This document shows, piece by piece, positions 18,029-48,669 of a DNA stretch of 64,000 nucleotides (the first letter of the stretch is position 1; each line of letters opens with the position of its first letter). Source of the stretch: a bacterium (GTDB lineage Bacteria > Bdellovibrionota_C > UBA2361 > CALJRW01); contig JANNBC010000011.1 of NCBI GenBank assembly GCA_031385045.1, positions 1 to 64,000 on the forward strand, in the 5' to 3' direction. A program made the translations under genes and the position numbers. The notes beneath the pieces were generated by a model. It worked only from the letters and a program-made list of their open reading frames with translations. It was not told the origin of the DNA and did no database searches.

Positions 18029-18214
18029 TCAAATCAGACCTGCTTTTTCGCAAGCATCACGGAAGACAAAGTCTACAAATCTAGCCCGCTCTTCGCGTTT
18101 TTTTCTTTTTTCTTCAAGATAGGCAGGAAGGTTATCTAATACTTCAAGGACATCCCACATCCTAGAGTCCTCAAATTCAAATCCCAATTCTCTTAAACGC
18201 TTTACTTGACTCAT
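18029..18214 (-). CDS. Small hypothetical protein coupled to the zeta-like ATPase
   Basis: ATGA overlap with the upstream gene; charged 61 aa. Confidence 0.6.
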   Translation of the reverse strand: MSQVKRLRELGFEFEDSRMWDVLEVLDNLPAYLEEKRKKREERARFVDFVFRDACEKAGLI

Positions 18215-18771
18215 AATTCTTGAAATAAATTATATTTGATTTGATCAAAGACTATTTCTTTTCCATTAGGCTTAGCTGCAATGATTATAGCAGAATTATT
18301 AGTATTATTAAATAACCACCAATTATCAACTAGCTTCTGGTAAATGGAACGGAAATTATTAAGAGATCTTGGAAAGCGACGCAGAATAGTATCACCTGGT
18401 ATATTATGCCCTCCCTCTTTAACACGATTAGCTACTCTTTGAATTGCTAAATCAACTGATTCCACAAAAATAAAATAGATTTCTATATGATACCCCAATG
18501 TTCGTGCATCTTTAATCAATTTAATCCAAATCTTCCCAGAAAGAGTGGTTTCAAAAGCAATATCTTGTTTTGCATCCAATAAATTACGAATAACTTTGAT
18601 TAGAACACGCCCTGATTCTATTTCTGACTTAACTGAATTCCCTAAACCATTAGCAATTGTATCTGCATTTAAAAATGTTTTAATTTGACCATTTTTTTTC
18701 AAAACATCTGCCAAGGTAGATTTTCCACTACCATTTGGTCCTGCAAGAATAATTAATTTAGGAGGTGTCAT
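18211..18771 (-). CDS. Zeta-toxin-like P-loop ATPase/kinase (COG4185 type)
   Basis: AGPNGSGKST, LNAD, FETTLSG, RVANRVKEGGHNIP. Confidence 0.85.
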   Translation of the reverse strand: MTPPKLIILAGPNGSGKSTLADVLKKNGQIKTFLNADTIANGLGNSVKSEIESGRVLIKVIRNLLDAKQDIAFETTLSGKIWIKLIKDARTLGYHIEIYFIFVESVDLAIQRVANRVKEGGHNIPGDTILRRFPRSLNNFRSIYQKLVDNWWLFNNTNNSAIIIAAKPNGKEIVFDQIKYNLFQEL

Positions 18772-20429: not shown

Positions 20430-23400
20430 TTAGAATTCAGGCTTTAATTTCTTCAACTCATTCATAGCATTTTCGGCGCCATCTTTAGCCATCTTTGTTG
20501 GGCTAAAACTAATTGGCTGCGCAGTGATTTGTCCATTCACAGCTTTATCTAAATCTGCACCATTTGATGATTTTGATAAAGTCTGACCTGCACCTGCTAA
20601 AGCAACCAACCCCTTCCCTGGATCTTTAGTAGCTATAGCTTCCCCTCCTAACAAGCCAGCAGTTTGAGTTACAGCACCTTGCAACCGCTGATGATTACCT
20701 TTTAGATCTAAGGTACTACCAGTATTGGCCTGATAATTAGTTGAAGCATAAGAAACTGCAGGTGATAATGCGCTAACTTGCCCACCCAATTCAGACATAA
20801 ATCCATTACTTGGATAGCTAAAGGCTTTATCATAACTAGAACCTAACATTCCTCCAGCACCAATTAACTCTAAGTCTTTTGGTTTATCTTTTGGATCAAA
20901 TGCTCCAGCAACAACTCCACGAGCCGCCATCATGCCCGACATGTGATTACTAAACTTAGCTCCTTGACTATAACTCTGTTCCCGCATGCCAAAGTTAGCT
21001 TGTTGAGTAAGTCGTCCACCCATTTCATTGGAAGCACGAGCTTGTTGTCCCATGACAAGTTGTCCCATCGAAGATTGAATATTGGCATCCCTGGAAGCTT
21101 GCTTAGAATCAAGAACTCCTGTCTGTCGATCTTTTTCCCAGTCTGCTCTTTGAGCTGCAACATCCGCTGACTCAATTCCAAGTTTTCCTTGTTGATTCTG
21201 AACGGCGGCACGATAAAGTGCAGGAGCACCTTTTTTGGTCAAATCAGCTGCCTTACCACCAAGACCTTTCATGGTCTCTACCATAGAAGGATCTCCAGGT
21301 GCCCCCGCTCCGCTTGTTCCAGGGGCACTCTGTGATGAATTTGGCGAAGCTGAACCAGGAGCTGCTGGGGCTGTTTTTGCTAACTGTGTTACTTCATCAA
21401 AAGCCATAGCTGCTTTCATTGAACCCATTACAGATTCCGCTCCCGCTTTACTCTTATCAAACTGGGCAATCTTAGCCGCGTTTCCAATTTCTCCAAATTG
21501 TTTCCCATCAGGAATACTTTGACTACCTTGATCAAATAAACTGCTTCGTGTCCCCAGTGCAGAACTCCGCATTTCTAAGCCCATCGCACTATTCTTAGAT
21601 TGTAAAGCTCTTAAAGCTAAGCCTTCCTGACGAGCACCTTTCGCATTAAATGTCTGCTCTGCAGCCATGTTGTTCATTGTACCATGACGAGTCTCTTCGG
21701 CAATGGCACCTGACCTAGCAGCCGATCCACCCTCAGATGAAACCCCACCAATCCCTTCTTTAACCATGTTGGACATACCAGATTTAGCACCTAGTAATAA
21801 TTGTCCAGTTACTGCCGGCACTGCGAAATAAAGAGCTGACATTAAGTAAATGTAATAGGCATTTACAAGATCATGGTTTAGAGAACGAGAAAGAATTAAT
21901 CCGCGATCAAATAAATCTAAAGCAGTACCTTCTGTTAAACGTAGACCTTGAAGAATAGAAGTAGCCTTTCCATCAGGACCAAAAACAAAATCTACAGAGT
22001 TAGTAGTGTTTACATCATTTGGAAAATCTAACTTTAAAATACTATAGTTTAAAGAAGCTACGTTATTAGAGTTACCAAGATTTGCCCAAATAGATTTTTC
22101 AATATTTTGAATCACAGCAAAGCCTGCATCCCAACTCTTGGCCCAAACATAAAAACTAGACCAAGTAATCATCCACTTCCACCAACCAGGAACTAGTACC
22201 ATGACACAGGCGAGTGGGTAACCAATCGAAAGAAGATAAAGAATCATCCCTTGAACGTGTGGTAACATTTTTGCCCAAGTATAAACCTCGGCAAACTTAT
22301 TTTTAGAGTTAGTTGTTCTACTAAACTCTTCCGCGTAATTGGCACTTCGATCTGATGGTAATAAATTTTGATCAGCAAGTTGTGGTGCCAGTGCAAACTC
22401 ATTGCGAATCATATAAGCCATAATCATATGCAACATGAATTGCTGTCTTTGCGAAGCTGTGGCAATTGGCTCTTCAGTACCATCAGACTTTAAAAATTCC
22501 CAATCATAGGTAAATACAAAATCCATCACATCAGTTTTTATAACTTCATTCTTCACAGAATCAGCAGCCACAGGTAGGTCTAAAGAAGTTCGTAAATTAA
22601 TGTAATGCAATGCTGATTCCCATCGAATCCCAGTCATCAACATCCATAGCCAATCATCACAGGTAATAGTTGTCGCTTGAAATTGCACATCGGCAGAACT
22701 TGGCGCTGTGTTGTTATCGCTAAAAGCAAATTGTTGAAAACCTGGGTTGGCTAAATCATTAGTCTTCTTATTGAGTAATTGCTTATAGGCATAAGGAGTT
22801 GGAATTCTAATCTTATTTAACTCGCACAGTAACTTATCTTTATCATTACCAGAACTACAATCAGTAGAAATGCTTGTACCAGAATTGGTAATTGTGTCAG
22901 GAGTTCCAGTAAATAAAGTTTTAGGTAAATTAAGTCCATTGGAACTTGAAGCTTTAATAAAAGCCCCCTTATTTAAGTATTCACTCATTTTATCACCGCA
23001 CTCACTGGACATATACTGAACCAGTAATTCTCGGAGCTCATTATTGGTAATCTTAGCACCAGTAATATTTTCCATTAACTCCCACTTCTCAGTGCTTAAT
23101 AGTGGCCAGTTTGTGGTTTGTGTTGGTGCAGAGTTCTGGTGACGATCTTTAGGTAACTCCCCTCTAATCCCCATTAATCCCACAACGTTCTGTATTACCT
23201 CGCTAGAAACTTCATCGATTTTGGTAAAAAACCAAGGAACATAAATAGCATAACTTGCTCCTGTTTTTTGATAGTCAGGAGTAATCGCTCCAGAAGCAGT
23301 ACTACTAATAATTGGGTTATTAAGTCCCGTGTAGGCAAGTTCCCAAACTACTCTTTGATCCTGCCTCTCTCCCCCAATCTCCCAAGCAACACCGTGACGC

Positions 23401-23819
23401 TCGACAATGTTAAAGAGCAAGAAATACATAATTCCTGGGCCGGCTGCAAACCAACCGTACATCTTAGGTGGCTGACCAAGAGCCATCATAATAACTGCTA
23501 TGAAAAAACTTAGCATGAAGATAAAAGCACCGATTGTTTTAAGGTAGGAAGCATCGCCACCCATTGGACTACTGTTTGCAGTTCCCAACTGATCTAATCC
23601 ACCAAATTTTTGAAGCAATGCACCAAGAGTCCAATAACCCATCGTGGCATAAGAAGCAGTAATAGGATTTGTAGCAGAAGAACAATATTGTCCCCAGGCA
23701 AGGTGGCCGTCCGCATCTGGCGTACAGCGAGTTGTAATTACAGGTTGGGCATAGGCAGATCCAGCTACCCCAAAAACAATTACTAATAGAAAAAACCCTG
23801 TTAAAATCCTTTTAATCAT
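20430..23819 (-). CDS. TraG-like (F-type/ICE mating-pair stabilisation, TraG_N) multi-pass membrane protein
   Basis: N-terminal TMs, VPWFFTKIDEVSS, Cys motifs (SECG, ITCDDW), second TM cluster LPHVQGMILYLLSIGYPLACVM..WAKSWD, long G/S/A/Q-rich tail. Confidence 0.62.
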   Translation of the reverse strand: MIKRILTGFFLLVIVFGVAGSAYAQPVITTRCTPDADGHLAWGQYCSSATNPITASYATMGYWTLGALLQKFGGLDQLGTANSSPMGGDASYLKTIGAFIFMLSFFIAVIMMALGQPPKMYGWFAAGPGIMYFLLFNIVERHGVAWEIGGERQDQRVVWELAYTGLNNPIISSTASGAITPDYQKTGASYAIYVPWFFTKIDEVSSEVIQNVVGLMGIRGELPKDRHQNSAPTQTTNWPLLSTEKWELMENITGAKITNNELRELLVQYMSSECGDKMSEYLNKGAFIKASSSNGLNLPKTLFTGTPDTITNSGTSISTDCSSGNDKDKLLCELNKIRIPTPYAYKQLLNKKTNDLANPGFQQFAFSDNNTAPSSADVQFQATTITCDDWLWMLMTGIRWESALHYINLRTSLDLPVAADSVKNEVIKTDVMDFVFTYDWEFLKSDGTEEPIATASQRQQFMLHMIMAYMIRNEFALAPQLADQNLLPSDRSANYAEEFSRTTNSKNKFAEVYTWAKMLPHVQGMILYLLSIGYPLACVMVLVPGWWKWMITWSSFYVWAKSWDAGFAVIQNIEKSIWANLGNSNNVASLNYSILKLDFPNDVNTTNSVDFVFGPDGKATSILQGLRLTEGTALDLFDRGLILSRSLNHDLVNAYYIYLMSALYFAVPAVTGQLLLGAKSGMSNMVKEGIGGVSSEGGSAARSGAIAEETRHGTMNNMAAEQTFNAKGARQEGLALRALQSKNSAMGLEMRSSALGTRSSLFDQGSQSIPDGKQFGEIGNAAKIAQFDKSKAGAESVMGSMKAAMAFDEVTQLAKTAPAAPGSASPNSSQSAPGTSGAGAPGDPSMVETMKGLGGKAADLTKKGAPALYRAAVQNQQGKLGIESADVAAQRADWEKDRQTGVLDSKQASRDANIQSSMGQLVMGQQARASNEMGGRLTQQANFGMREQSYSQGAKFSNHMSGMMAARGVVAGAFDPKDKPKDLELIGAGGMLGSSYDKAFSYPSNGFMSELGGQVSALSPAVSYASTNYQANTGSTLDLKGNHQRLQGAVTQTAGLLGGEAIATKDPGKGLVALAGAGQTLSKSSNGADLDKAVNGQITAQPISFSPTKMAKDGAENAMNELKKLKPEF

Positions 23820-23827
23820 TATTCCTG

Positions 23828-24778
23828 CTATCTTTTTACATACTCCGGTTCTTTATAATTCTTAACTCTTTCGTTCACTGCTTCATGCATTGCCAGAATA
23901 CTTTTAGCAATATTTAACTGCGTAGCTTGTAGATCTGATAATTTACCTTCAGTACTTTCATTTAATTGACTTAACAAGACTTGTAGTGCTTCGCGCTGAT
24001 CTTCATTAAAGGTTCCAATTGCAGTATTCACCAGTCCCGCATAATTATAAATAATTCCTAGAGCATGATAATAGGCAATATTAGTTACAAAGATAAAGTA
24101 ATAATTAGAATAACTAAAAGCATCTCGTTGTGCGTCAGTTAACTCTCCTGTTGGGCTTCCATAAATCTTCCAAAATTCCGAATATGGCTTAGGACTTTTA
24201 AATGCCTCACAGGATAACTCTTTAGTAAAAGTTCGATAAAGTTTTAAGAATGACTGGGCCGCAAACTCAGTAAATTTAACATCAGGGATTGAAAGTAGAT
24301 TATATTTAGCAGCAAGTGCCTCTTGATTATTAAAATATGTATCACTTCCCTCTTTTAACTTATCGGGAGTAGAGTTAGCTTCCCCTGTGCAAATTTTTTC
24401 TAAAACCTCCGATAAGGCTTTCCACTTAGCAGTTGCTAACTCACAAGTTAAAGTAGTAACTGCTTTTTGGCCTTCAGCCTTACAGTCATCAACCGTAGAT
24501 CCTGTAGGCTCCACTCGTTTCGTAGTCCACTCTACCTCAGTTTCAGCATTACCAGTCCGTTCAACTGTTACATCCCCAAAATACTTTTTATATTCCTCCT
24601 TAAAGTCATTTAATTTATCCTGAGGAAAAGTAGTAATTAGAGAATTGGCACAAAAGGTCACATCAACAAGGGAAATCTTTTTCTTGCCTGTAAAATTACA
24701 ATCTTGGGCATACAAGATATTTGTAAAAAGTATTAATATTGCTAAGAAAAAGCTTTTTTCTAAAACCTTTAGATTCAT
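23828..24778 (-). CDS. Exported Cys-containing protein, possibly related to the TraH C-terminal half
   Basis: Signal peptide (…ILYA-QD), several Cys, C-terminal coiled coil; directly upstream of the traG-like gene. TraH link is weak. Confidence 0.45.
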   Translation of the reverse strand: MNLKVLEKSFFLAILILFTNILYAQDCNFTGKKKISLVDVTFCANSLITTFPQDKLNDFKEEYKKYFGDVTVERTGNAETEVEWTTKRVEPTGSTVDDCKAEGQKAVTTLTCELATAKWKALSEVLEKICTGEANSTPDKLKEGSDTYFNNQEALAAKYNLLSIPDVKFTEFAAQSFLKLYRTFTKELSCEAFKSPKPYSEFWKIYGSPTGELTDAQRDAFSYSNYYFIFVTNIAYYHALGIIYNYAGLVNTAIGTFNEDQREALQVLLSQLNESTEGKLSDLQATQLNIAKSILAMHEAVNERVKNYKEPEYVKR

Positions 24779-24780
24779 GA

Positions 24781-25440
24781 CTAATTGTTTACAAATAAAT
24801 TGTTCATACCAGCAGCATCTCCATCCGCACGTCGCTTAGGCGTCTCTTCTTGCTTGGAATCTTCTGCGTCTTTACTCGATAAACAAGAATCAACAATTAA
24901 TCCAACATCATGAGATTTATTAGCAGTAGCTTTATCAGTAATACACTTACTTAATTCAGCAAGTAATTGTTTTGCTGGTTGAGAACCAGAATTCTTAGCA
25001 ACTTCGGCAACAAGTTGATAAGTGCTCATGGATCGCTCCATTTGTTGATTACTAAATTCATTGGCCGCTTGTAGCCCTGCTAAAACTGCCGGCTCTGTCA
25101 TGGCCACACCAGTCATATAAAGTGTCACTTGTCCTTTAAGACCCAAGTTTAATAAATCAACACTTCCTTTATGACTCATAGAATCTACATAACCCTGATA
25201 CGATCCAACTCGTAAATTCTTATTTTTAATTGGGGCAGGTGCAGCGCCAGCTCCATCGCCACCATCGCTCGGAACTCGAGGCACAAGCACAGGGGGAAGA
25301 AAGTTATCTCCAATCGCAGTATTTGTCGGCCCCAATGATTCATTTGCTTTATACATTAATGGGGTACTATCCTCTGCTTGAACGATACCCTGACTGCAAA
25401 TCATTAAGCCTGCAATTAAAACTAGCAATCCCTTTCTCAT
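24781..25440 (-). CDS. Exported protein, possibly related to the TraH N-terminal half
   Basis: Signal peptide (VQA-ED); helix LYMTGVAMTEPAVLAGLQAANEFSNQ reminiscent of the TraH core; overlaps the stop of the traF-like gene. Confidence 0.45.
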   Translation of the reverse strand: MRKGLLVLIAGLMICSQGIVQAEDSTPLMYKANESLGPTNTAIGDNFLPPVLVPRVPSDGGDGAGAAPAPIKNKNLRVGSYQGYVDSMSHKGSVDLLNLGLKGQVTLYMTGVAMTEPAVLAGLQAANEFSNQQMERSMSTYQLVAEVAKNSGSQPAKQLLAELSKCITDKATANKSHDVGLIVDSCLSSKDAEDSKQEETPKRRADGDAAGMNNLFVNN

Positions 25441-26510
25441 TTGCCTCTCACAATTTTAAACATTTCATCCAAGTAATTAGCGCTAACAACATCATTTATT
25501 TGATAAAACTTCCCAGAGCTAGAATCGACAACCATAATTGTTGGCGCACTAGTAATATTTAATTTCTGAGCTAACTCTTTAGATGCCAAAGTCGTGAACT
25601 TCGCTCCGGTTCTTTTCTGGAAATTAGCTAACGCCCCGTCCGATACGTCATCTAATGAGAATCCTAGGATATTTAACTCGTCACTATCATCTAACTTAGC
25701 AAACACTGTTTGTAATGCGGTAGCTAAGTCAATTGATTTTTGATCGGTTGTCTTAAAAAAGAAGTAAACATCTACCTGACCAGTTGGAAGATAAGGAACC
25801 TTACCAGTAAGTTCTGATCTAGCTTGAGCTCGCTCGGCTTGTGCAATATCTCTTTTCTCTTCCGGGGATCCAGAGAATAAATCATTATCTTTGCGCTTAG
25901 CTTTTTTTAGTAACTCTTGAGCATCAACTGCCAAGCGACCCACTTGGTTTTCAACTTTAGGCTGCTCGTCAATAAACTGCATTAAGTCAGGATTATTATT
26001 AATTTCTGACTTAACCCAACCATCGGCTGGAATTGCTCCCGTTTTATACATGGCTAAACCATGAATGGAGGCAGCATCTTTGTTGATCTTCTCTAGTGCT
26101 TCAATATAGTTTTGGTACTGAACAGCATATTCAAAAGCTAATTTCTTATCCCCGACCTTCAAAGCTTCAATCATTGCTTGGAAAGGTTTTGGAGCATCTT
26201 TAATCGCCTTTACTTCGTGAGGTAGTTTTGGATCGCCATACTCGGCAATAATTTTTTCTTGAGGAGTTTCAGGTTGTTTAGGAGTAGAATCGGCTTTTTC
26301 AGCATTGGGAAGAAGATCACTTGGTTCTTCTTTATAATAGGCTTTCTCAATTTTTAGCTGTTTACCAAAAATATTTCGAACATCTCTTTCCTGCCCAGGG
26401 AAAAAAGATTGTGAGTCAGCCTGGCAATTAAGACTTGCTATAGCTACTTGAGTAACTACTAAACAAAGTCCTAAATATTTAAATTTACTAAACATTTTTC
26501 TAATACCCAC
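25437..26510 (-). CDS. TraF-like periplasmic thioredoxin-fold protein lacking CxxC
   Basis: Signal peptide; C-terminal VYFFFKTTDQKS...ILGFSLD...LAQKLNITSAPTIMVVDSSSGKF matches the TraF/TrbB pattern. Confidence 0.65.
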   Translation of the reverse strand: MGIRKMFSKFKYLGLCLVVTQVAIASLNCQADSQSFFPGQERDVRNIFGKQLKIEKAYYKEEPSDLLPNAEKADSTPKQPETPQEKIIAEYGDPKLPHEVKAIKDAPKPFQAMIEALKVGDKKLAFEYAVQYQNYIEALEKINKDAASIHGLAMYKTGAIPADGWVKSEINNNPDLMQFIDEQPKVENQVGRLAVDAQELLKKAKRKDNDLFSGSPEEKRDIAQAERAQARSELTGKVPYLPTGQVDVYFFFKTTDQKSIDLATALQTVFAKLDDSDELNILGFSLDDVSDGALANFQKRTGAKFTTLASKELAQKLNITSAPTIMVVDSSSGKFYQINDVVSANYLDEMFKIVRGK

Positions 26511-27121: not shown

Positions 27122-27150
27122 TTGACATATATATGTTTAATATATATGCT
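27122..27150 (+). promoter_or_regulatory. vapBC promoter with palindromic operator
   Basis: TTGACA(27122)-17-TATGCT(27145); palindrome acatatatatgt; ATG 7 nt downstream. Confidence 0.7.
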
Positions 27151-27157
27151 TAAACAT

Positions 27158-27406
27158 ATGAAAAGAACTTCCCTCATGTTAGATGATAATTTACTAGAAG
27201 AAATCCGAGCTCTGGCTCAACAAGAAGGGCGAACCTTAAAAGATCAAATTCAATTAATACTAAGAGAAGGAATTAGAAATATGCCTAGTGCCGAGAAAAA
27301 AAATTTTAAACTTAAACTCCCAAGAACAATGGGAAAATTAATTTCAGAAGTTGATATAAGTAATCGAGATCAATTATTTAATATCTTTGATCAGAAATCT
27401 AAATGA
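27158..27406 (+). CDS. vapB: VapB-type antitoxin (ribbon-helix-helix)
   Basis: MKRTSLMLDDNLLEEIRALAQQEGRTLKD RHH pattern; overlaps the start of the PIN gene. Confidence 0.8.
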   Translation: MKRTSLMLDDNLLEEIRALAQQEGRTLKDQIQLILREGIRNMPSAEKKNFKLKLPRTMGKLISEVDISNRDQLFNIFDQKSK

Positions 27407-27834
27407 TTGCAGTTGATACAAATATTTTGGTATATGCGACTCGCCAGGAATTTCCTCAGCATCAGATTGCCTATGAACTTTTAGTGGACCTAGCTGAGGG
27501 CAACAGTCTTTGGGCAATCACCTGGCCTTCAATTTATGAATTCAGTCGAGTACTAACTCATCATAATTTGGTGAATCCTCCCGCCAGTACCAATGAAATA
27601 TTTTTAATAATTGAAAGCTTACTTAAATCCCCAAGCCTTAGAGTCTTATCACATGGCACTAATCATCAACAAACAATGCTAGCAGAAACTAAAAATACAT
27701 TCGCTAAGGGAAATTTTTTCTTTGACTTACAAATCGCCTCGATTCTTAAGGAGCATGGAGTAAAAGAAATTATTACAGCTGACAGTGATTTTTTAAAATT
27801 CTCTTGGTTAAAAGTCACGAATCCGTTTCTCTAG
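27403..27834 (+). CDS. vapC: VapC PIN-domain toxin
   Basis: MIAVDTNILVYA, EFSRV, FFDLQIA, TADSDF acidic residues. Confidence 0.9.
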   Translation: MIAVDTNILVYATRQEFPQHQIAYELLVDLAEGNSLWAITWPSIYEFSRVLTHHNLVNPPASTNEIFLIIESLLKSPSLRVLSHGTNHQQTMLAETKNTFAKGNFFFDLQIASILKEHGVKEIITADSDFLKFSWLKVTNPFL

Positions 27835-28032: not shown

Positions 28033-28219
28033 ATGAACAAGAATCATAAGACAACAAACCTCTTAATGAAAGTTAAGTTTTGTATTCAACACGGGCTTTA
28101 TCTTGACACTAGACACGCTTCAGATCGACAGTCGTCAGAAAGACAAATTAATAGATTTGAATATTTTGTTGATTATTACAGCAATTGATTTGGACCTAGA
28201 ACATGCTAATAAAAACTAA
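28033..28219 (+). pseudogene. DUF4258-like toxin pseudogene (internal deletion and frameshift)
   Basis: First frame (28033-28188) reads YLDTRHASDRQSSERQINRFE; a shifted frame reads ILLIITAIDLD to the stop at 28219; central part missing. Confidence 0.6.
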
Positions 28220-28655
28220 GAAACATCACATCGATCATGGGTTAGGGTTTCCAATTAAACTTTTAAATGTGCCAATGTGCAAAATGAGAGGAGAATGGAC
28301 ACCTGCTATTAATTATAACTTGCTTAGTAAATTAGTGCTTCATCAACTCTGCTGTCTGGAAAGCAAGCTAAGTGGCAATCACGTCAGATTTATCAGATTA
28401 TATTTTGAAATGACCCTACAGCAATTTGCTGAGCGTTTTGGAATTACTCACCCTGGCGTTATTAAATGGGAAAATATGAGGGGCGAACCAACTGGCATGA
28501 CTTGGGCAATTGAAAAAGATGTGAGATTATTTATTCTTTGTCGGCTCTCTAAGAAATCAAAAGAGTTAGTGAGTCTTTACCGAACCCTTGAAAAAGTAAT
28601 TAACAAAACTGACTCTATTTATTTAGAAATAGATCTTCGAAAACTGGCGGCATAA
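28203..28655 (+). CDS. Xre-type HTH protein, antitoxin-like
   Basis: LSGNHVRFIRLYFEMTLQQFAERFGITHPGVIKWE HTH. Confidence 0.75.
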   Translation: MLIKTKKHHIDHGLGFPIKLLNVPMCKMRGEWTPAINYNLLSKLVLHQLCCLESKLSGNHVRFIRLYFEMTLQQFAERFGITHPGVIKWENMRGEPTGMTWAIEKDVRLFILCRLSKKSKELVSLYRTLEKVINKTDSIYLEIDLRKLAA

Positions 28656-41212: not shown

Positions 41213-44200
41213 TTACTGAGCACTTCCCGTTTCATCTTCTTGCAGACTAGATAACATCTGCGTCAAGATACCTCTCATTGCTTTTCTAGTAGCCGGATCC
41301 ATCGGAACTTCAGGAAGAGGCACTGCATTAGGCTGTACTTGCTCAGTACCAGGTGCCCTCTCCTCACTTACAGAATTTATCGGAAGCTCTGAAAGAACCT
41401 TTGATGCAAAAATATTCATCGCGCTATCATTAGGATTAAATTGCAAAACATGAGGATTTTCAACAGGCCTACGAACATAAAACTGGTTAGACCACCTTTC
41501 TAAACTATCGGCTGTTATTACATGATAACCAATCTGGCGAGCACCAATTACCAACCGAAAATACTCATCATGTAACTCCAAATCATCGGAGTAAGCTCTC
41601 GGATTATTTGTAAGTGCTGGTTGATCACTCCTATATGTAAAGTGATTATAAATCTGCATATTTGAATAAACAACATGATACAAATATGCTTGAAATTTTC
41701 CTATGGTGATTGGATCTGAAACGGAATCAAAGTAAGCTTCCAAAGCTACTATTTTAATTTGATCTTCTTTACTCCATCTCTCCTCGTCATTTCGATCTCG
41801 CTCCTCAACATGCCTCTTAAATAAGGCAGCATCGTAAGCTAGCTCTGCAAGTTGCTTACTACTTAGTGTGTTTGAATTAAATGCGTAAACTAATGGATAA
41901 ATATTAAAAGGGCTATTCTGTACTAACTCCATAAACTCCTCTGTTTTGACTGTAGGATCAAAACAAGCTCTAAAAAGATTAGCCTCTGCCTTAGTTTCGG
42001 TTAGAAGCCATACTCCTTCTCTATATTTGATTATTTCACTCCCTGATACCTTTTTTTCGAATGGCACTTGGGCAAATTTATTTAGGTTAGCGATGAAGTC
42101 ACCTAACTGCCCATCTAGACTATCAATAAACTGAGAAACCTGAATTTTCTCTCTCGATCTCATTATATCATAGACTTCAATGAAAGGATTATTAGCATTT
42201 TCAGCTGCAAAGCGAATATCATCAATTGCTCGCGATGAGATATTTGCGGACGAAGATAGCTCACCTAACCCTTGAATCGCAAGCAAGGCTTCCTTAACTT
42301 TAATAAAATGGCGCGCATCACTCTCAAAAACAATCTCTGCGATTGCCTGTAATCTCAACTCTAATCTTCTAGTTAAAGCTGCTTGATCACCATTATGATA
42401 ATTACGATTAAAACAATGCATAACATACGGTAGGGCAACTAAAACTGAATGTGCTTCTTGATTTGTATTCGTTTCATCATAATTTTTAAAAATGCGAATT
42501 ACATCTCGCATAATTTGGAACTGCCCCTTCTGCCCGCAACTCTCTCTATAGATATAATTAAAAGTAGTTTTTAATAAGTTTGCTGAATATGGTGCCTGCA
42601 GCGACGAAAATCCAGTAGCATCATATTCAAATAAACCAGCAGAAATTATATTTCTAAAACCTTGAGTATTTACTCCAGCATCAGTCTCTTGAGATACTAA
42701 CCTCTCCCCAACCATCAACTTAGCGATATAGTGGCTTAAAGGGTCTTGTCTGTGGCCTAGAGAAATAGACTGCAACTCTGATATCAATTCAAATTGTCGA
42801 TTTCTGGATTGTTCAAGGTAATAGCGAAGGGCTAAAGCAAAATTTACTACTGGAATAGAGGTCGATCCATTTTCCTTTACAAGCATTAAATCAACTTGTT
42901 CAACAAGTTTGCCGACTAAACTTGGATCTACCTCACTAAACAATGGTAAAGTACTAAATTCTTTTATAAGATCTAAGATTACACTATGCATTGATGTTCT
43001 ATCTTGAGGCAAGAGATCATGTTTCATGACTGAAAAAGCAGGAATACCGATGGCATAAGCTTGAGTATCTGCAGCTTTAAGTAACATATCTATTTGAATT
43101 GCAGGATGCTTTGCATTTGATGAAAAAATTCCTCGCTGCTGAGAATCCCCTTTAGTCCTATCTTCAACTTTAATATCTTCTAATAAATATTGGGCTAATT
43201 CTGGACCAGAGATAAATCTTCGATCTCCAAACTGAAGACTTATTAAAGATTCATTAAGTTGACCTAAAAGAATATCATTATCGGTTTTTCTTGAATCTAG
43301 TTGCGTATCTGAACGAAGTGGGATCTTAATCTTATCTACTACCGATTTTCTTTCTTGAATTCCCCATTGCTTCCCATTTATGCCCGGCCTAGCTAGATTA
43401 TCTAAAGTATCAAAGTAGCTTGGGACATCAGTTAATTTATAAAGTAGGATCTCAGGGAAAAATAATTCCCTAAAAATTGGGTTAATTTGCTTCCAGTCTT
43501 TCGCCATTTCAGTTTCGATTTTATCCTTGGATAAATCATTACCAAAGATTACAATCAATTCGAATCTAATAACATGCATGATCTTAGCAAGACGAGTTTG
43601 CTCATCGACAGCACCTTCAGGGTGAAGCTCCTTATGACGCAAAGCCCAATTCAAATTTTGCAAAAGATCATTCTGACTTCTTGAAGCTTCCGTTCTTAAA
43701 GGACTCATAGTCATAATATCATCATCGCTACCATACGAAAGATACCCACTATCGTTTGGCACTTTATGCAAAAGAAATGTCAGAACTGAATTTTGAACAT
43801 CAACCATATTCCTGACCGCCTCAGGCCAAATACAAAGCTGACAATCCTCAGAATCTTCTGGGAGATTTTTAAATTTAAAATCTGGCTCAAGAATACAATT
43901 TAATGTTGTCGCTAAAATCCTACTTACAACATGAATATCATTTTGAAATCCAGAATAATCTTGATAATGATTAAATGTTAAAACAACCTGATCCCAAAGC
44001 AATTTAAAGGCAATCCTACTTACCTTATCACTAACTGGCCTCTCACCATCTGCTAGACCTAATCTATCTTGAGGAAAGATCAAACCTGCGATTGTTGGTT
44101 GCGCAATTAAAACTAATGAATCAGCAACCGCTTTATAAACAATCTGCAAAGCACTAAGCGAAGAATAATCTCTTTTAAAGTTACCATTTTCTCGAACCTC

Positions 44201-44749
44201 CTGAATCAGCGCCCCCAGATTTTGATTCAAGATACTTTTAGGAGAGAATACTGTATCCTTTCTATGTTCTGTCTGATAAATTTTATCAAGTACGTTAACA
44301 GCAGCAACCCCATTGAAAATTAAATCTTGAATAATTAACGAGCCCACTCTATTTGAATCTTGCCCATGGAGCGCAAACTGGTTCCATTCTTTAATGTCAT
44401 TACGGGCACCACTTGCCTGACCAAGCCAAACACCATTAATTGACTGCGCAGCATCAAAACATCGAGTAAAATAATGAATGATAAAGGTACAATCTTTAGC
44501 GTCTAAAGTATCATATATATTTTTCAAGCCAGACGTATCCTTTACCCAAGTAGCTTCAGGGCTTAAGATCTTGGCGCTAAGCGCATGAATCAAGTTAGTA
44601 GAACTCAAATCACGTAGATAATCTGCAGGGACAAAAGACCGCAAATCAAATTCAGTAGATATTTTCAATCGCTCCAATTGCGCGACAAACTGTACTTCAA
44701 TTTCACGATGATTTAGTAATGGACTATTGGTTTGATGATAACTAGCCAT
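41213..44749 (-). CDS. Large hypothetical protein (1178 aa), paralog of 44896-48669
   Basis: Long ORF; shared blocks such as QEAHSVLVALPYV, YNHFTYR and FFPEIL; no signal peptide or TM recognised. Confidence 0.85.
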   Translation of the reverse strand: MASYHQTNSPLLNHREIEVQFVAQLERLKISTEFDLRSFVPADYLRDLSSTNLIHALSAKILSPEATWVKDTSGLKNIYDTLDAKDCTFIIHYFTRCFDAAQSINGVWLGQASGARNDIKEWNQFALHGQDSNRVGSLIIQDLIFNGVAAVNVLDKIYQTEHRKDTVFSPKSILNQNLGALIQEVRENGNFKRDYSSLSALQIVYKAVADSLVLIAQPTIAGLIFPQDRLGLADGERPVSDKVSRIAFKLLWDQVVLTFNHYQDYSGFQNDIHVVSRILATTLNCILEPDFKFKNLPEDSEDCQLCIWPEAVRNMVDVQNSVLTFLLHKVPNDSGYLSYGSDDDIMTMSPLRTEASRSQNDLLQNLNWALRHKELHPEGAVDEQTRLAKIMHVIRFELIVIFGNDLSKDKIETEMAKDWKQINPIFRELFFPEILLYKLTDVPSYFDTLDNLARPGINGKQWGIQERKSVVDKIKIPLRSDTQLDSRKTDNDILLGQLNESLISLQFGDRRFISGPELAQYLLEDIKVEDRTKGDSQQRGIFSSNAKHPAIQIDMLLKAADTQAYAIGIPAFSVMKHDLLPQDRTSMHSVILDLIKEFSTLPLFSEVDPSLVGKLVEQVDLMLVKENGSTSIPVVNFALALRYYLEQSRNRQFELISELQSISLGHRQDPLSHYIAKLMVGERLVSQETDAGVNTQGFRNIISAGLFEYDATGFSSLQAPYSANLLKTTFNYIYRESCGQKGQFQIMRDVIRIFKNYDETNTNQEAHSVLVALPYVMHCFNRNYHNGDQAALTRRLELRLQAIAEIVFESDARHFIKVKEALLAIQGLGELSSSANISSRAIDDIRFAAENANNPFIEVYDIMRSREKIQVSQFIDSLDGQLGDFIANLNKFAQVPFEKKVSGSEIIKYREGVWLLTETKAEANLFRACFDPTVKTEEFMELVQNSPFNIYPLVYAFNSNTLSSKQLAELAYDAALFKRHVEERDRNDEERWSKEDQIKIVALEAYFDSVSDPITIGKFQAYLYHVVYSNMQIYNHFTYRSDQPALTNNPRAYSDDLELHDEYFRLVIGARQIGYHVITADSLERWSNQFYVRRPVENPHVLQFNPNDSAMNIFASKVLSELPINSVSEERAPGTEQVQPNAVPLPEVPMDPATRKAMRGILTQMLSSLQEDETGSAQ

Positions 44750-44895: not shown

Positions 44896-47800
44896 CTAAT
44901 TCAGCCCGCCCAAATACTGTTTAGTTAATTCAACTTTTTCATCATTAGAGAGATCTGGATTTGCCAGTAAGCCTGCCAATAGAACTTTGGTTAAATGTGA
45001 GGAATTTGCAGGTATTTTTAGTGATTCTTGATCAAGCTTAGTATTTTCTTGCTCAGTTTCTTCTTCCGCAAGCGTCTTAGCCATATAAGTTGTGATGGCT
45101 GATTTTTCTGGATCAAAGTGAATCATTTCAGCCTTATGCGACCAACTAGAAGAATGAATCTTTGCAGACCAATTAGCTAAAGAACTAGAAACGGCCTTAT
45201 CATAACTCATACCTCTAGCACCAACTACTAAACGGTAGAACTCATCATGTAAACGTGAATCATCCGCACGCACTCTTGGATTACTAGTTAAACCAGGCTG
45301 ATCTCGACGATAAGTAAAATGATTATAGATCTCCATGTTGGTATAGAGAACGTGATAAAAATAAGACTGATACTTCAATCTTAATTCTTTTTTCTTCTGC
45401 GCAATTTCAGCATGAAGCAATTCTTGATCGACTTCGATAACCTTAACATTTTCGTTGTTGTCAGTAGCTTCTGCCCCAGCTAGCTCTAAGTTTGCTTTCT
45501 CAGCATTAGCAATATGTTTCTCCCTTACAGTACTTGCAACTTGAGTTAATGAATCAGCGAAAAATTTATTTAAGCTTGCTAAGTTCTTTCCTTTATCTGC
45601 GTGATTATCACCAAAAAGGCTTGCATCATAAGCTAACTTTGCCAGATCACCCGGCTGTAATGCTGGCATTTCTAAGGCCAACAAAAATGGATAATTATTA
45701 AAAGGTCCTTTTTCTACTTCTTCTTTATAAGCATCTATGGTTACATTACTATCAAGGCAAGCCTTAAAAATTTTAGCTTCAGCTGCTGTTTCATCTAGTA
45801 ACCATCTACCTTCAACTAATTCTATCCTTTTCTTAAACCACTTTGTTTCCTCGGCTGCTACATTTTGAGTACCTGAACTATCCAAAGAAGAGTCAGCATC
45901 AGAAGCTATGCTCTCTCTTTTAGGCTTTTCATCTTCGCCTGCTAAATAAATTAATTTATCAAGACGATCTTGATAATTTGCAAGTCCCGCTTGCAAATCA
46001 GAACCAGAGATTATCGAAATGAATGCTGGTAAATCAATTGACTGCCTCGCATTCATAATATCATAAACCTCGACAAAGGGATTATGATCATACTCAACAG
46101 ACTTTGAACTTCTAACGAGAGCATCATCAGGTAAATCCTTACCTAAAGCCTTCATTGCTGTTTTTACAGGCTCAAATAACTTGGAGTCTTCACCAATACC
46201 AAAAACAACTCCCTGAATAAGATCTAACCTCTCTGCTAAATTAAACTTAGCAAGGCCATCGGTTCCTTTTAAACGATTAAGAACATACGGCAATGCAACT
46301 AAGACCGAATGCGCCTCTTGCATACCACCATTTGTCTGATCATAATTTTTAAAGATCTGGATCACATCTTTCATAATCTGTAATCCATCAGGTTGCTCTT
46401 GTATATTCTTATATATAAATCTGAATATCGTCTCATTTAAACGGAGCGGGTATGGGCTATGTACGAAAGTAAAATTAGACATGTTAAACATGAATAGATT
46501 CGTTCCAATTTCATTTCGTAAGCTAAATTTAGATCCAGGATTTGGCTTGTCATTTGGATCTTTAACAATTCCCTCTTTCGGAACTACACAAGCACCATGC
46601 ATCAAACTTGCAATAACTTGACACTTATCATCCTGTCTATGTCCATCGATGATACATTTTAATTCCGCGGCAAGATCATATTGCTTATTACGAGTCTGTT
46701 CTAATAAATATGCCAATGCCATGCCAAAATTATTTACCTTTATGCCTGTTTCCTGAGTCTGAAACATGGCATCAATTTTCTCTTTAAGCACAAGCTTCTC
46801 CATCGGGTCGTTAGCAAGTGCCACAAGACCCATTGAATTAGCATTTGGTAATGTTCCAAAATCTTCAACAATCTTTAATATTAAATTTCGCGTTGCTTCA
46901 TTCAAATCGGCAGTCTTTGTATGACTCTTCTGCGCAGTTGCCAATCTTTGTTTAAAGCCAACAAATTGACCTTGCGCGACAGCACCTTCACAATAAACAT
47001 CAAGCGTTGCCGCTTTTAATAATTGATCTTCTTGTAATTTACGATGGTTAGATTTCGCTGAAAAAATACCCTTCAGTGCAGATTCTCCTTCAACTTTATC
47101 CGAGCCATCAATCAGAAATTTTGCTAACTCTACTCCTGAGTGAAATCTCCTATCTCCAATTTGCAAACTCAGTAAAGATCGATTTAATTCTTTTAAATTA
47201 TCTGGAGCTTCTGGCTTAAGTGGGATTGCTAGTCGTTCAATTAAATTTTTTCTCTCTTCGGCAGATAAATTTACACCGACTAGCTCTGGTCGCACCAATT
47301 TATTTAACTCATTAAAGTAAATAGAAGTAGGGTCAGTTAATTTAAAATGAAGAATCTCAGGGAAGAACATTTCTTGAAAAACCTGATTCATATCTTTCCA
47401 ATCTTTGGCCATTTCTTTCTTGACGGTATCTACAGAAAGGTTTTCACCAAAAATTGTCATTAACTGAAAACGAACTACATCAGTAATTCCAGTTAATCTT
47501 GCTTGTTCATAAATAACACCATCTGTGTACAACTCTGTGTGTCTAATCTTCCAGTTAATATATTTATAAAGATCATTTCTAGCCCCATTATCTTCACCTC
47601 TTAAAGGAGAGCTAATCATCCAACCATCATCTGCTAAATAACCTAGAAATCCATTATCATTTGGAACTTTCGAAAAGAGAAAGGTCTGCACGGTATTTTG
47701 CAAACTCACAGAGGTTTTGATTGCCTCGGGCCAACGAGTAATGTGGCATACATCAGAGCTTGCAGGTAAATTTTTAAAGTCAAAGTCTGGCTCTTTCAAA

Positions 47801-48669
47801 CATCGGAGCGTTGTCATCAAGACCCTATTCACAATTGGGGAATCTCGATCAAACCCTGGCATTTGATCATAGTGATTTAAGGTTGCAACTGACTGATCCC
47901 AAAATAACTTTGTTGCCAAGGTGCTAACTCGATCTTCAATATCACTTAACTGCACATCATTATCAGTTGCTCCTTTCTGAGTAGATGTAACCATTCCAAA
48001 TTTTTTTGGTTCATAAATAAGCTGCAAAGACTCCGCAACAGATTTATAGATAATCTGCAAAGAGCCCAAGGCAGAATAAGGCTCTTTAAAACCACCATCC
48101 TCACGCAATTCTTTTAAAAATGCTCCAAGGTTTTGATCCAGAATTTTCTGTGGTGAGAATGGAGTATCTTTCCTAACTTGAAGTTTAAAGACTTCCTCCA
48201 GAGCTTTAATTGCGGCTATGCCATTAACGACCAAATCCTGCATAACCTGACAACCTGGTCGCGCAAGATTGTCAGTCAATAAAGATACAGTCTTCCACTC
48301 TTTAACATCATTACGATCACCACTTTTATCACCAAGCCAAACCAAATGTCGCTTTTGGGCTTTATCGAAAAACTTAGTTGTTTTATCAATTAATTCGTTA
48401 GTATCAGCTCCAAAAATTTTCCCATAGGCGATCTTTAATTCCTCATTTAATTTTCCAAAATCTGTTCCTGAAGTCGTTGCTGCTTGACTAAGTTTATGCA
48501 CTAAATTTGCTGAGCTTAATCTATAACTAATACTTTTTGGAAGACATTCCCGAATATCAAATTCAGCGGCATTATCAAGCCTTGATAAATTATCTAAAAA
48601 TTCCTGGTTAATGTCGACACGACTGACAACTGGTTTTGGTGATGATGGATTACTAACAGCTTCTGGCAT
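44896..48669 (-). CDS. Large hypothetical protein (1257 aa), paralog of 41213-44749
   Basis: Long ORF with colinear similarity to its neighbour; S/P-rich N-terminus. Confidence 0.85.
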   Translation of the reverse strand: MPEAVSNPSSPKPVVSRVDINQEFLDNLSRLDNAAEFDIRECLPKSISYRLSSANLVHKLSQAATTSGTDFGKLNEELKIAYGKIFGADTNELIDKTTKFFDKAQKRHLVWLGDKSGDRNDVKEWKTVSLLTDNLARPGCQVMQDLVVNGIAAIKALEEVFKLQVRKDTPFSPQKILDQNLGAFLKELREDGGFKEPYSALGSLQIIYKSVAESLQLIYEPKKFGMVTSTQKGATDNDVQLSDIEDRVSTLATKLFWDQSVATLNHYDQMPGFDRDSPIVNRVLMTTLRCLKEPDFDFKNLPASSDVCHITRWPEAIKTSVSLQNTVQTFLFSKVPNDNGFLGYLADDGWMISSPLRGEDNGARNDLYKYINWKIRHTELYTDGVIYEQARLTGITDVVRFQLMTIFGENLSVDTVKKEMAKDWKDMNQVFQEMFFPEILHFKLTDPTSIYFNELNKLVRPELVGVNLSAEERKNLIERLAIPLKPEAPDNLKELNRSLLSLQIGDRRFHSGVELAKFLIDGSDKVEGESALKGIFSAKSNHRKLQEDQLLKAATLDVYCEGAVAQGQFVGFKQRLATAQKSHTKTADLNEATRNLILKIVEDFGTLPNANSMGLVALANDPMEKLVLKEKIDAMFQTQETGIKVNNFGMALAYLLEQTRNKQYDLAAELKCIIDGHRQDDKCQVIASLMHGACVVPKEGIVKDPNDKPNPGSKFSLRNEIGTNLFMFNMSNFTFVHSPYPLRLNETIFRFIYKNIQEQPDGLQIMKDVIQIFKNYDQTNGGMQEAHSVLVALPYVLNRLKGTDGLAKFNLAERLDLIQGVVFGIGEDSKLFEPVKTAMKALGKDLPDDALVRSSKSVEYDHNPFVEVYDIMNARQSIDLPAFISIISGSDLQAGLANYQDRLDKLIYLAGEDEKPKRESIASDADSSLDSSGTQNVAAEETKWFKKRIELVEGRWLLDETAAEAKIFKACLDSNVTIDAYKEEVEKGPFNNYPFLLALEMPALQPGDLAKLAYDASLFGDNHADKGKNLASLNKFFADSLTQVASTVREKHIANAEKANLELAGAEATDNNENVKVIEVDQELLHAEIAQKKKELRLKYQSYFYHVLYTNMEIYNHFTYRRDQPGLTSNPRVRADDSRLHDEFYRLVVGARGMSYDKAVSSSLANWSAKIHSSSWSHKAEMIHFDPEKSAITTYMAKTLAEEETEQENTKLDQESLKIPANSSHLTKVLLAGLLANPDLSNDEKVELTKQYLGGLN

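Follow-up and report, generated by a model that had tools for sequence, protein, structure and literature searches.

A chromosomal operon of traF- and traG-like genes, very probably one islet of a scattered type IV secretion system of F-type descent in Bdellovibrionota_C

The operon and its genomic setting

Four intact minus-strand open reading frames (ORFs) lie close together in the window analyzed here, the 64,000-nucleotide stretch at positions 1 to 64,000 of contig JANNBC010000011.1 (C5:1-64000) in assembly GCA_031385045.1, a bacterium of the GTDB lineage Bdellovibrionota_C; UBA2361; CALJRW01. The source genome (G000) amounts to 2.83 Mb in 61 contigs and is rated 95% complete. In order, the ORFs (Table 1) code for a TraF-like protein of 357 aa, two “middle” proteins of 219 and 316 aa at the position of traH, and a TraG-like protein of 1129 aa, with a 4-nt overlap between the first two genes followed by gaps of 2 and 8 nt. 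An earlier reading, made from the sequence alone (the sequence-only reading), had singled them out as four tightly coupled genes, and its coordinates and spacing were reproduced. We are confident that they form a traF-(traH?)-traG islet of a dispersed type IV secretion system (T4SS), derived from the F-type class of mating-pair formation systems (MPF_F-like), and that this system has become fixed in the chromosome.

The operon stretch bears no mark of mobility. At the operon there is no flanking direct repeat of at least 15 nt, no 16-mer of the nearby tRNA-Met is repeated elsewhere in the genome, and the GC content at third codon positions (GC3) is within one standard deviation of the genome mean. 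The window contains no ORF resembling the genome’s own integrase, and the lack of both integrase and att duplication in the 64 kb had already been remarked upon in the sequence-only reading. Compared with the congener G008, the ratios of nonsynonymous to synonymous substitution (dN/dS) were 0.08, 0.15, 0.25 and 0.16 for the 357-, 219-, 316- and 1129-aa proteins, values that are rough because dS was 1.5-2.0, i.e., near saturation; two core neighbor genes gave 0.03-0.07. All four are genuine genes kept by purifying selection. A 140-aa ORF upstream was rejected as a fifth operon member: it is found in G008 but in 0 of 16 other loci checked. The operon is flanked by a gene for a Zeta-toxin-like ATPase and by an RHH-PIN toxin-antitoxin pair with an HTH gene, and the RHH-PIN pair also occurs in G008.

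Table 1. Location of the operon, of the other T4SS genes of the source genome and of further features (plain coordinates refer to the window; prefixes C and L denote contigs and loci)
Feature	Coordinates	Strand	Remarks
TraF-like protein, 357 aa	25437..26510	-	Helical N-terminal part and C-terminal thioredoxin-like domain without CxxC
Middle protein, N-terminal half, 219 aa, exported, at TraH position	24781..25440	-	Aligns with the N-terminal half in relatives
Middle protein, C-terminal half, 316 aa	23828..24778	-	Own N-terminal hydrophobic leader, six Cys; aligns with the C-terminal half in relatives
TraG_N/extended VirB6-family inner-membrane protein (putative), 1129 aa	20430..23819	-	Conserved folded core 1-~690; fast-evolving, low-complexity tail
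Main tra operon	C54:163410-174915	one strand	Profile matches and gene order
VirD4-type coupling protein	C46:14785-17163 (protein described from L113:11786-14164)		PF02534, E 7.6e-38; alone among polysaccharide genes
Small conserved gene, 170-aa form	L036:19177-19689 = C54:175176-175688		Directly beside the main tra operon, inside one contig
Zeta-toxin-like ATPase	18211-18771		
RHH-PIN toxin-antitoxin pair and HTH gene	27122-27834, 28203-28655		
Kinase-like gene and two small partners	L036:5462-7375		After the pilin gene
Integrase, primase-like, restriction-modification island	C46:19949-35040		2.8 kb from virD4
Four tandem ankyrin proteins, 561-700 aa	C54:134189-142971		~20 kb from the main tra operon
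Three large ORFs without Pfam match	41213-44749, 44896-48669, 48962-50845	-	

Identity of the encoded proteins

In a Pfam scan, the C-terminal domain of the 357-aa protein matched Thioredoxin_8 (E 3.8e-6) and TraF (E 0.17), and TIGR02740 was reached at E 0.061. TraF matches at E 0.013-0.015 appeared in 2 of 6 further homologues, and when 55 plasmid F-type proteins were searched with a profile of the family, TraF came out on top (E 0.052). The CxxC motif is absent from the 357-aa protein and occurs in 3 of 49 homologues, in all three outside the thioredoxin part. This fits F TraF, which is described as thioredoxin-like without CxxC (PMC7555446). Fold, lack of CxxC and position thus make TraF a plausible assignment, with weak TraF-specific scores (E 0.013-0.17). 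The sequence-only reading had called it a signal-peptide protein with a thioredoxin fold and no CxxC; domain and missing motif hold, while the N terminus stays below the hydropathy threshold used for a hydrophobic segment, a segment found in the 219-, 316- and 1129-aa proteins.

In alignments, the 219- and 316-aa proteins match the N- and C-terminal halves, respectively, of what is one protein of 516-737 aa in relatives. The two exported proteins of the sequence-only reading keep their hydrophobic N termini and correspond to one gene that is undivided in relatives. The split recurs in G008 alone among 55 other genomes examined; a frameshift artefact was ruled out by this same split, by the leader of the second half and by the selection acting on both halves. 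Tandem duplications occur as well, with the middle and traG-like genes present twice in G027 and G067 and the middle gene twice in G004 (L042, L186, L203).

Pfam and NCBIfam scans of the 1129-, 316- and 219-aa proteins gave nothing informative, the 219-aa protein having no Pfam match at all. The TraH model PF06122 found nothing over its cut-off in 5 genomes and matched 0 of 14 members of the middle-protein family, and hhalign put the probability of a match between the middle protein and TraH at 1.4%. When the family profile was compared with the 55 reference proteins, however, the top seven were all TraH (10 of the 55 being TraH). The 316-aa half shows a weak collinear likeness to the C-terminal helices of TraH. 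The best score, 10.7 bits, exceeds the 4.1 of 404 shuffled or reversed TraH and is below the 11.4 reached by the top one among 2486 unrelated ORFs. The TraH reference profile was shallow, since searches for diverse TraH gave close F relatives only, and F TraH had no PDB sequence match to compare with. A fused orthologue was modelled at a predicted local distance difference test (pLDDT) score of 71.4; Foldseek found no match to it, and a wide structural search returned no clear fold (best Z 5.3). The ESM Atlas gave one lead, to DUF5045 (0.88), and nothing else, and a homologue search from the family alignment retrieved one protein only. Position, size, cysteines and the helical C terminus make TraH the likely identity, if a weakly supported one. 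Of the traH call in the sequence-only reading, the place in the gene order stood; the PF06122 match was absent and the sequence likeness weak.

The 1129-aa protein itself had no direct match to TraG_N. In the ESM Atlas its top clusters carry TraG_N (24-100% of members; score 0.95), with a recognition value below the reliable range of the tool. Weak matches (E<=0.05) were obtained for 7 of 25 orthologues, and among the paralogues that the TraG-like profile finds at E 1e-24 to 1e-57, TraG_N reached E<=1e-3 in 10 of 14 and its cut-off in 3 of 14. Against 4 plasmid TraG, hhalign gave only 9.8%, and no plasmid match to the core was found. An AlphaFold2 model of residues 1-700 (pLDDT 82.8) had as its top match, out of 48,161 chains, the VirB5/VirB6 stalk of R388 (Z 6.5, root-mean-square deviation [rmsd] 6.2, 231 residues aligned) and as its second the DotA-IcmX channel of Legionella (Z 6.0, rmsd 8.3, 252 aligned), with rank 3 at Z 5.6; from their lengths, the matched chains are inferred to be TrwI and DotA. 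Foldseek found no match to this model, and PDB sequence searches with the TraG-like protein, the middle protein, VirD4 and the partner of the second coupling protein (see below) returned nothing relevant. Membership in the TraG/VirB6 family is supported transitively, via orthologues, paralogues, Atlas and fold, and it is by this route that the TraG_N match foreseen in the sequence-only reading was obtained, next to weak scores for the TraF match that it had also foreseen. The long tail rich in G, S, A and Q that it described is real (46% of these residues in 681-1129 vs 27% in 1-680), and dN/dS vs G008 is 0.08 for the core and 0.28 for the tail. Downstream of the traG-like gene there are often unrelated ORFs of 530-770 aa without informative Pfam match (L041, L048, L049, L050), possibly a variable cargo.

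The rest of the machine

The remaining T4SS genes of the genome sit on other contigs. The label “orphan” is therefore right inside the 64 kb and wrong genome-wide, and a reading of the operon as an isolated relic is ruled out. The main tra operon, on contig C54, encodes a 113-aa exported ORF, ORFs of the sizes of TraL and TraE, TraK, TraB/VirB10, TraV, a lipoprotein, TraC, another lipoprotein, PH, SH3 and M23 proteins, TraX and a VirB2-type pilin. Matches were found to TraK_C (1.9e-6), TrbI/VirB10 (1.8e-14), TraV (0.0016), TraC_F_IV (PF11130, over cut-off, 9.6e-14), TraX (3.9e-31) and TrbC/VirB2 (0.0058). The best VirB4 model for TraC is TIGR02746 (E 2.8e-52), far below its equivalog cut-off. 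TraL and TraE were called by position and size only; with family profiles they come out on top, but at E 0.63 and 0.18. This order is kept across the TraC loci (49 loci, several incomplete), some with duplicated pilin genes; TraX is restricted to G000 and 1 of the 49 other loci. All 30 TraC examined have an intact Walker A. After the pilin gene, 15-19 of the 49 loci carry a kinase-like gene with two small partners.

The VirD4-type coupling protein is encoded on contig C46. Its residues ~687-792 form a strongly conserved C-terminal domain of ~105 aa with no Pfam match, which is longer and repeat-like in G100 and G101 and has a second, weaker match in G077. The integrase-bearing island near virD4 is not among the recurring neighbors of this gene (1.5-kb flanks). 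As to the missing F components, the Pfam models of TraN and TraU (PF06986, PF06834) gave nothing over cut-off in 5 genomes. Profiles built from 3-7 plasmid proteins detected TraN, TraU, TraW and TrbC in G000 at nothing better than E 0.05, a search that very diverged forms could escape; the TraV control for such profiles matched at 1.5e-4.

Relatives usually have, divergent ahead of the tra operon, a second coupling protein with an upstream membrane partner. It was detected in 114 of the 124 genomes of the phylum (69 of 73 high-quality ones), and its sole PDB match is Legionella DotL (E 3e-12); the partner showed no sequence match to DotM. The second coupling protein is followed in relatives (12 other loci) by a conserved gene of ~160-190 aa without known family or Pfam match. 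In G000 and G008, both genomes of the genus, no second coupling protein was found. Since the small following gene adjoins the operon of G000 within one contig, second coupling protein and partner look to have been lost cleanly in this genus.

Distribution and linkage

The diverged, core-genome F-type parts with a remainder encoded elsewhere that the sequence-only reading proposed are seen in the genes on C54 and C46 and in a phylum-wide distribution. TraC was recovered in 121 of the 124 genomes and in all 73 of high quality, as one gene or as complementary fragments; the identity of full-length copies is 62-69% for other genera of the order and 56-62% for genomes beyond it. Within the order (91 genomes, 55 of high quality) the TraG-like gene was present in 80 (51 high-quality) and VirD4 in 85, while in the whole phylum the TraG-like profile matched 111 genomes (70 high-quality) and VirD4 27 of 30 sampled. 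Two genomes of family f22 with sizes of 1.2-1.8 Mb (G091, G092) have TraC and no match for the TraG-like or second coupling protein. G024, a single contig rated 82% complete, has the F-M-G operon (TraF-like, middle and TraG-like genes), but TraC and both coupling proteins went unmatched there, which may be a gap or a real loss.

We examined 57 loci from 55 genomes, chosen from the best TraG-like matches. TraF-like, middle and TraG-like genes (F-M-G) follow each other in this order at 47 of them; the exceptions are eight loci without the F gene, mostly at the end of a stretch or contig, one without the middle gene and one whose middle gene is unlabelled. Both loci fetched from family f10 contain a second F-M-G module directly upstream of traL-traE-traK-traB-traV-traC, which argues that F-M-G belongs to the tra machine, and in G003 virD4 adjoins the traG-like gene. 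In other orders, five tandem TraG-like ORFs were found in 13 of 18 loci, the remaining five showing 3-4 in the part fetched; at the 7 loci with a labelled TraF-like gene, this gene stands ahead of the array. Different families share core genes next to the operon, a TonB-like gene at 6 of the 57 loci and gcvP at 5.

Inheritance

Trees of RpoB and TraC from 30 genomes have 8 of 27 splits in common, the order split included (label-shuffle maximum, 4), with a patristic correlation of 0.87; for VirD4 in the same set, 8 of 24 splits are common (r 0.75). For comparison, the two halves of RpoB share 9 of 24 splits (r 0.89), exactly as the N-terminal half does with TraC (9 of 24, r 0.89); the truncated or outlying RpoB rows of G103, G113 and G117 were left out here. 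IQ-TREE gave 10 of 24 common splits, without support values. For the TraG core and RpoB in 18 genomes of the order, 4 of 15 splits agree (r 0.77) with no well-supported conflict, and the RpoB halves share 3 of 15. Approximately unbiased (AU) tests reject every alternative topology, including that of one RpoB half by the other, and thus discriminate poorly. Median identities within the order are 72% for RpoB, 67% for TraC, 66% for VirD4, 37% for the TraG core, 23% for the TraF-like protein and 15% for the middle protein, and the nearest plasmid TraC is only 22-25% identical. These data agree with vertical descent through a radiation that the trees resolve poorly, with some exchange between families possible.

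Relaxases and candidate substrates

Seven relaxase families were searched and none is conserved, as the sequence-only reading had expected in finding no cognate relaxase. MOBF was detected in 3 of the 91 genomes of the order (G007, G008 and G083, not G000), MOBH in none of the 91, and MOBP, MOBQ, MOBC, MOBV and MOBT gave nothing over cut-off in the 5 genomes searched for each, although G057 had a single MOBC match below threshold. By this count, the system has a coupling protein without a recognizable conserved relaxase, as in effector-translocating T4SS, and by relaxase, integrase, att and distribution it does not qualify as a conjugative element.

Of the gene families within 1.5 kb of virD4, all but VirD4 itself are confined to 10 of 49 loci or fewer. 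Some genes deserve mention as possible substrates. Three large minus-strand ORFs of the window have no Pfam match, and the first two are tandem paralogues (38% identical) with no other relative in G000. On C54 there are four tandem ankyrin proteins, one of which also matches PcfJ-like; G008 had no Ank_2 match.

What the machine may transfer

Very probably, an F-derived T4SS became fixed in the chromosome before the phylum radiated and now serves the cell. By extension from F and R388 biology, TraB, TraK and TraV would build an outer-membrane ring, TraC with TraL and TraE would power assembly from the VirB2-type pilin, and the TraG-like protein would be the stalk, or the base of the channel, in the inner membrane. 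In the periplasm, the Cys-containing middle protein may have the TraF-like protein as its chaperone, and VirD4 may recruit substrates through its conserved C-terminal domain. The fast-evolving middle protein and TraG tail would be the target-facing parts of a machine that injects protein, upon contact, into a prey or host cell, bacterium or protist. Coupling proteins recruit substrates and are dispensable for pili, according to a 2025 review (PMC12857230), so something is presumably translocated. Protein is the likeliest cargo because there is no recognizable relaxase and the outward parts evolve fast (15% and 23% identity vs 66-67% for the ATPases). We lean toward the whole statement, i.e., a domesticated F-derived T4SS with contact-dependent protein delivery, and rank this function ahead of DNA export or uptake and, lastly, adhesion. 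More tentative, and rather open to doubt, is the fuller scenario of a single capture by the ancestor of the phylum that gave rise to a core injector for attack or host contact, in which each of two distinct coupling ATPases would handle its own substrate class and one branch would have a five-subunit TraG/VirB6 channel.

Several observations weigh against this interpretation. The best score of VirD4 is with the CD1115 family, which is conjugative, and those of the second coupling protein are with SXT TraD (3.7e-16) and TrbC (5.5e-14), both DNA-transfer proteins. Five of the relaxase families (MOBP, Q, C, V, T) were searched in 5 genomes each only. A MOBM relaxase, or one of tyrosine-recombinase type or another novel kind, is possible, and G000 has three integrase-like ORFs. 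No second copy of the VirD4 C-terminal domain was found among G000 proteins, the C-terminal charge of seven candidate substrate ORFs is unremarkable, and ankyrin proteins are scarce (0-6 matches in 5 genomes). VirD4 had no match in G091, G112 and G113. Well-supported family-level splits conflict with RpoB in four cases for TraC and six for VirD4, and AU tests find RpoB topologies less compatible with the TraC alignment than the RpoB halves are with each other. Finally, the Z-scores of the TraG-like model are within the range that the tool calls unspecific for helical proteins.

The strongest competitor, which we nevertheless consider unlikely, is a host-owned machine that moves DNA, either chromosomal DNA exported or transferred with a novel relaxase or none, or DNA taken up, with one coupling protein as the motor. 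The families closest to the two coupling proteins are conjugative ones, the second protein is highly conserved and followed by a conserved gene that G000 has kept, and there are precedents in Helicobacter ComB (uptake) and the gonococcal genetic island (GGI) of Neisseria. However, the GGI needs its MOBH relaxase (PMC3548315, which covers these precedents), and here none of the seven relaxase families searched is conserved; second coupling protein and partner are missing from both genomes of the genus, where the rest is still under selection; and TraU and TraN, tied in F to DNA transfer and mating-pair stability, were not found. Less probable again is an organelle for surface contact or adhesion, a pilus or envelope bridge that holds host or prey while passing little substrate. 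It would account for the pilin genes, duplicated in some loci, for the fast evolution of target-facing parts and for the five TraG/VirB6 paralogues of other orders, and a relaxase-less T4SS is essential for epibiotic growth in Patescibacteria (PMC12102498). But one or two coupling ATPases are kept at nearly the conservation of RpoB, and such proteins serve substrate transfer rather than pilus assembly (PMC12857230); the adhesin TraN, moreover, was not found. An ordinary ICE (integrative and conjugative element) remnant, or a resident conjugation channel mobilizing MOBF elements in trans, is very improbable and the remnant largely refuted: the MOBF relaxases of three genomes, the integrase 2.8 kb from virD4, and the tRNA-Met and toxin-antitoxin pairs near the operon speak for it, but TraC and TraG-like genes are distributed phylum-wide (TraC in every high-quality genome) and not in the patchy manner, with cognate relaxase and integrase, that the sequence-only reading associated with ICE remnants, the G008 relaxases adjoin their own coupling proteins, att repeats are lacking, GC3 is native, selection is purifying, core-gene neighbors are common across families, and plasmid TraC are distant.

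Relation to known systems

Among the MPF_F systems (F, SXT/R391, IncC), the likeness lies in the traL-E-K-B-V order, an F-type TraC, a TraG_N-family protein, a thioredoxin-like protein without CxxC whose gene stands two places ahead of traG, and an islet of its own for traF-x-traG; a traF-traH-traG islet was also seen on a MOBH plasmid. In contrast, the system of this phylum is chromosomal, dispersed and vertically inherited, with no recognizable relaxase, TraN, TraU, TraW or TrbC, a barely recognizable TraH and a TraC only 22-25% identical. It also has a VirD4-type coupling protein with a unique C-terminal domain and extra conserved genes for lipoproteins and PH, SH3 and M23 proteins. With TraN, TraU, TraW and TrbC undetectable and the features of a conjugative element absent, it is an F-derived variant and not a standard member of MPF_F.

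The GGI is an island in part of one species and not a core trait of a phylum. It shares with our system a chromosomal F-like T4SS in a non-conjugative role and differs in that it carries a MOBH relaxase and exports DNA (PMC3548315). Parallels to the rvh system of Rickettsiales are vertical inheritance, chromosomal islets and five highly divergent tandem VirB6 (here in other orders), but rvh is of VirB/P type with VirB11 and duplicated VirB4/8/9 (PMC2653234). Because the system of this phylum is F-derived, its five-copy TraG array would be convergent with rvh. A search for ATP/ADP translocases in the 124 genomes gave no match; the control was silent too, and the result is hence not evidence. 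Legionella Dot/Icm (MPF_I) is likewise domesticated and relaxase-less; a coupling protein like DotL, paired with a membrane partner, exists in most of the phylum, and the fold likeness to DotA can be added. However, it belongs to a different class, the partner has no DotM match, the DotL-like pair is lost in the genus of G000, and the effector arsenal of Dot/Icm has no counterpart shown here. The T4SS of Patescibacteria is similar in scale, being phylum-wide, chromosomal and mostly relaxase-less, with its own VirB4 clade and a co-opted function, but its ancestry is MPF_FATA, as opposed to the F-like type with an outer-membrane TraB/K/V core found here (PMC12102498). In Vampirovibrio, a predator, the system is of T type and lies on plasmids that carry a relaxase (PMC4451040).

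In the open-access literature, the scope of our search (subscription journals and supplementary tables lay outside it), there was no paper on an F-type T4SS in UBA2361/Bdellovibrionota, searches by taxon name brought up surveys and genome papers only, and “Bdellovibrio” does not occur in a 2025 T4SS review (PMC12857230). By the time of a 2012 survey, dedicated protein delivery had been shown for MPF_T and MPF_I machines only, relaxase-less F-type systems being scattered single cases (PMC3548315), and F-type pED208 moves proteins during conjugation (PMC8406263). If the fuller scenario of a single capture is true, this would be the first dedicated effector translocator of the F class, one that defines the lifestyle of a phylum. 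PDB sequence searches show no solved structure related to F TraG or TraH, which makes the TraG and middle-protein family a structural target. The phylum would offer a natural minimal F machine without TraN, TraU, TraW and TrbC, together with natural experiments in one vs five TraG, one vs two coupling proteins, and a whole vs split middle protein. A phylum-wide domesticated F-derived system would add a route of exaptation and give a strong clue to the life of 124 uncultured species.

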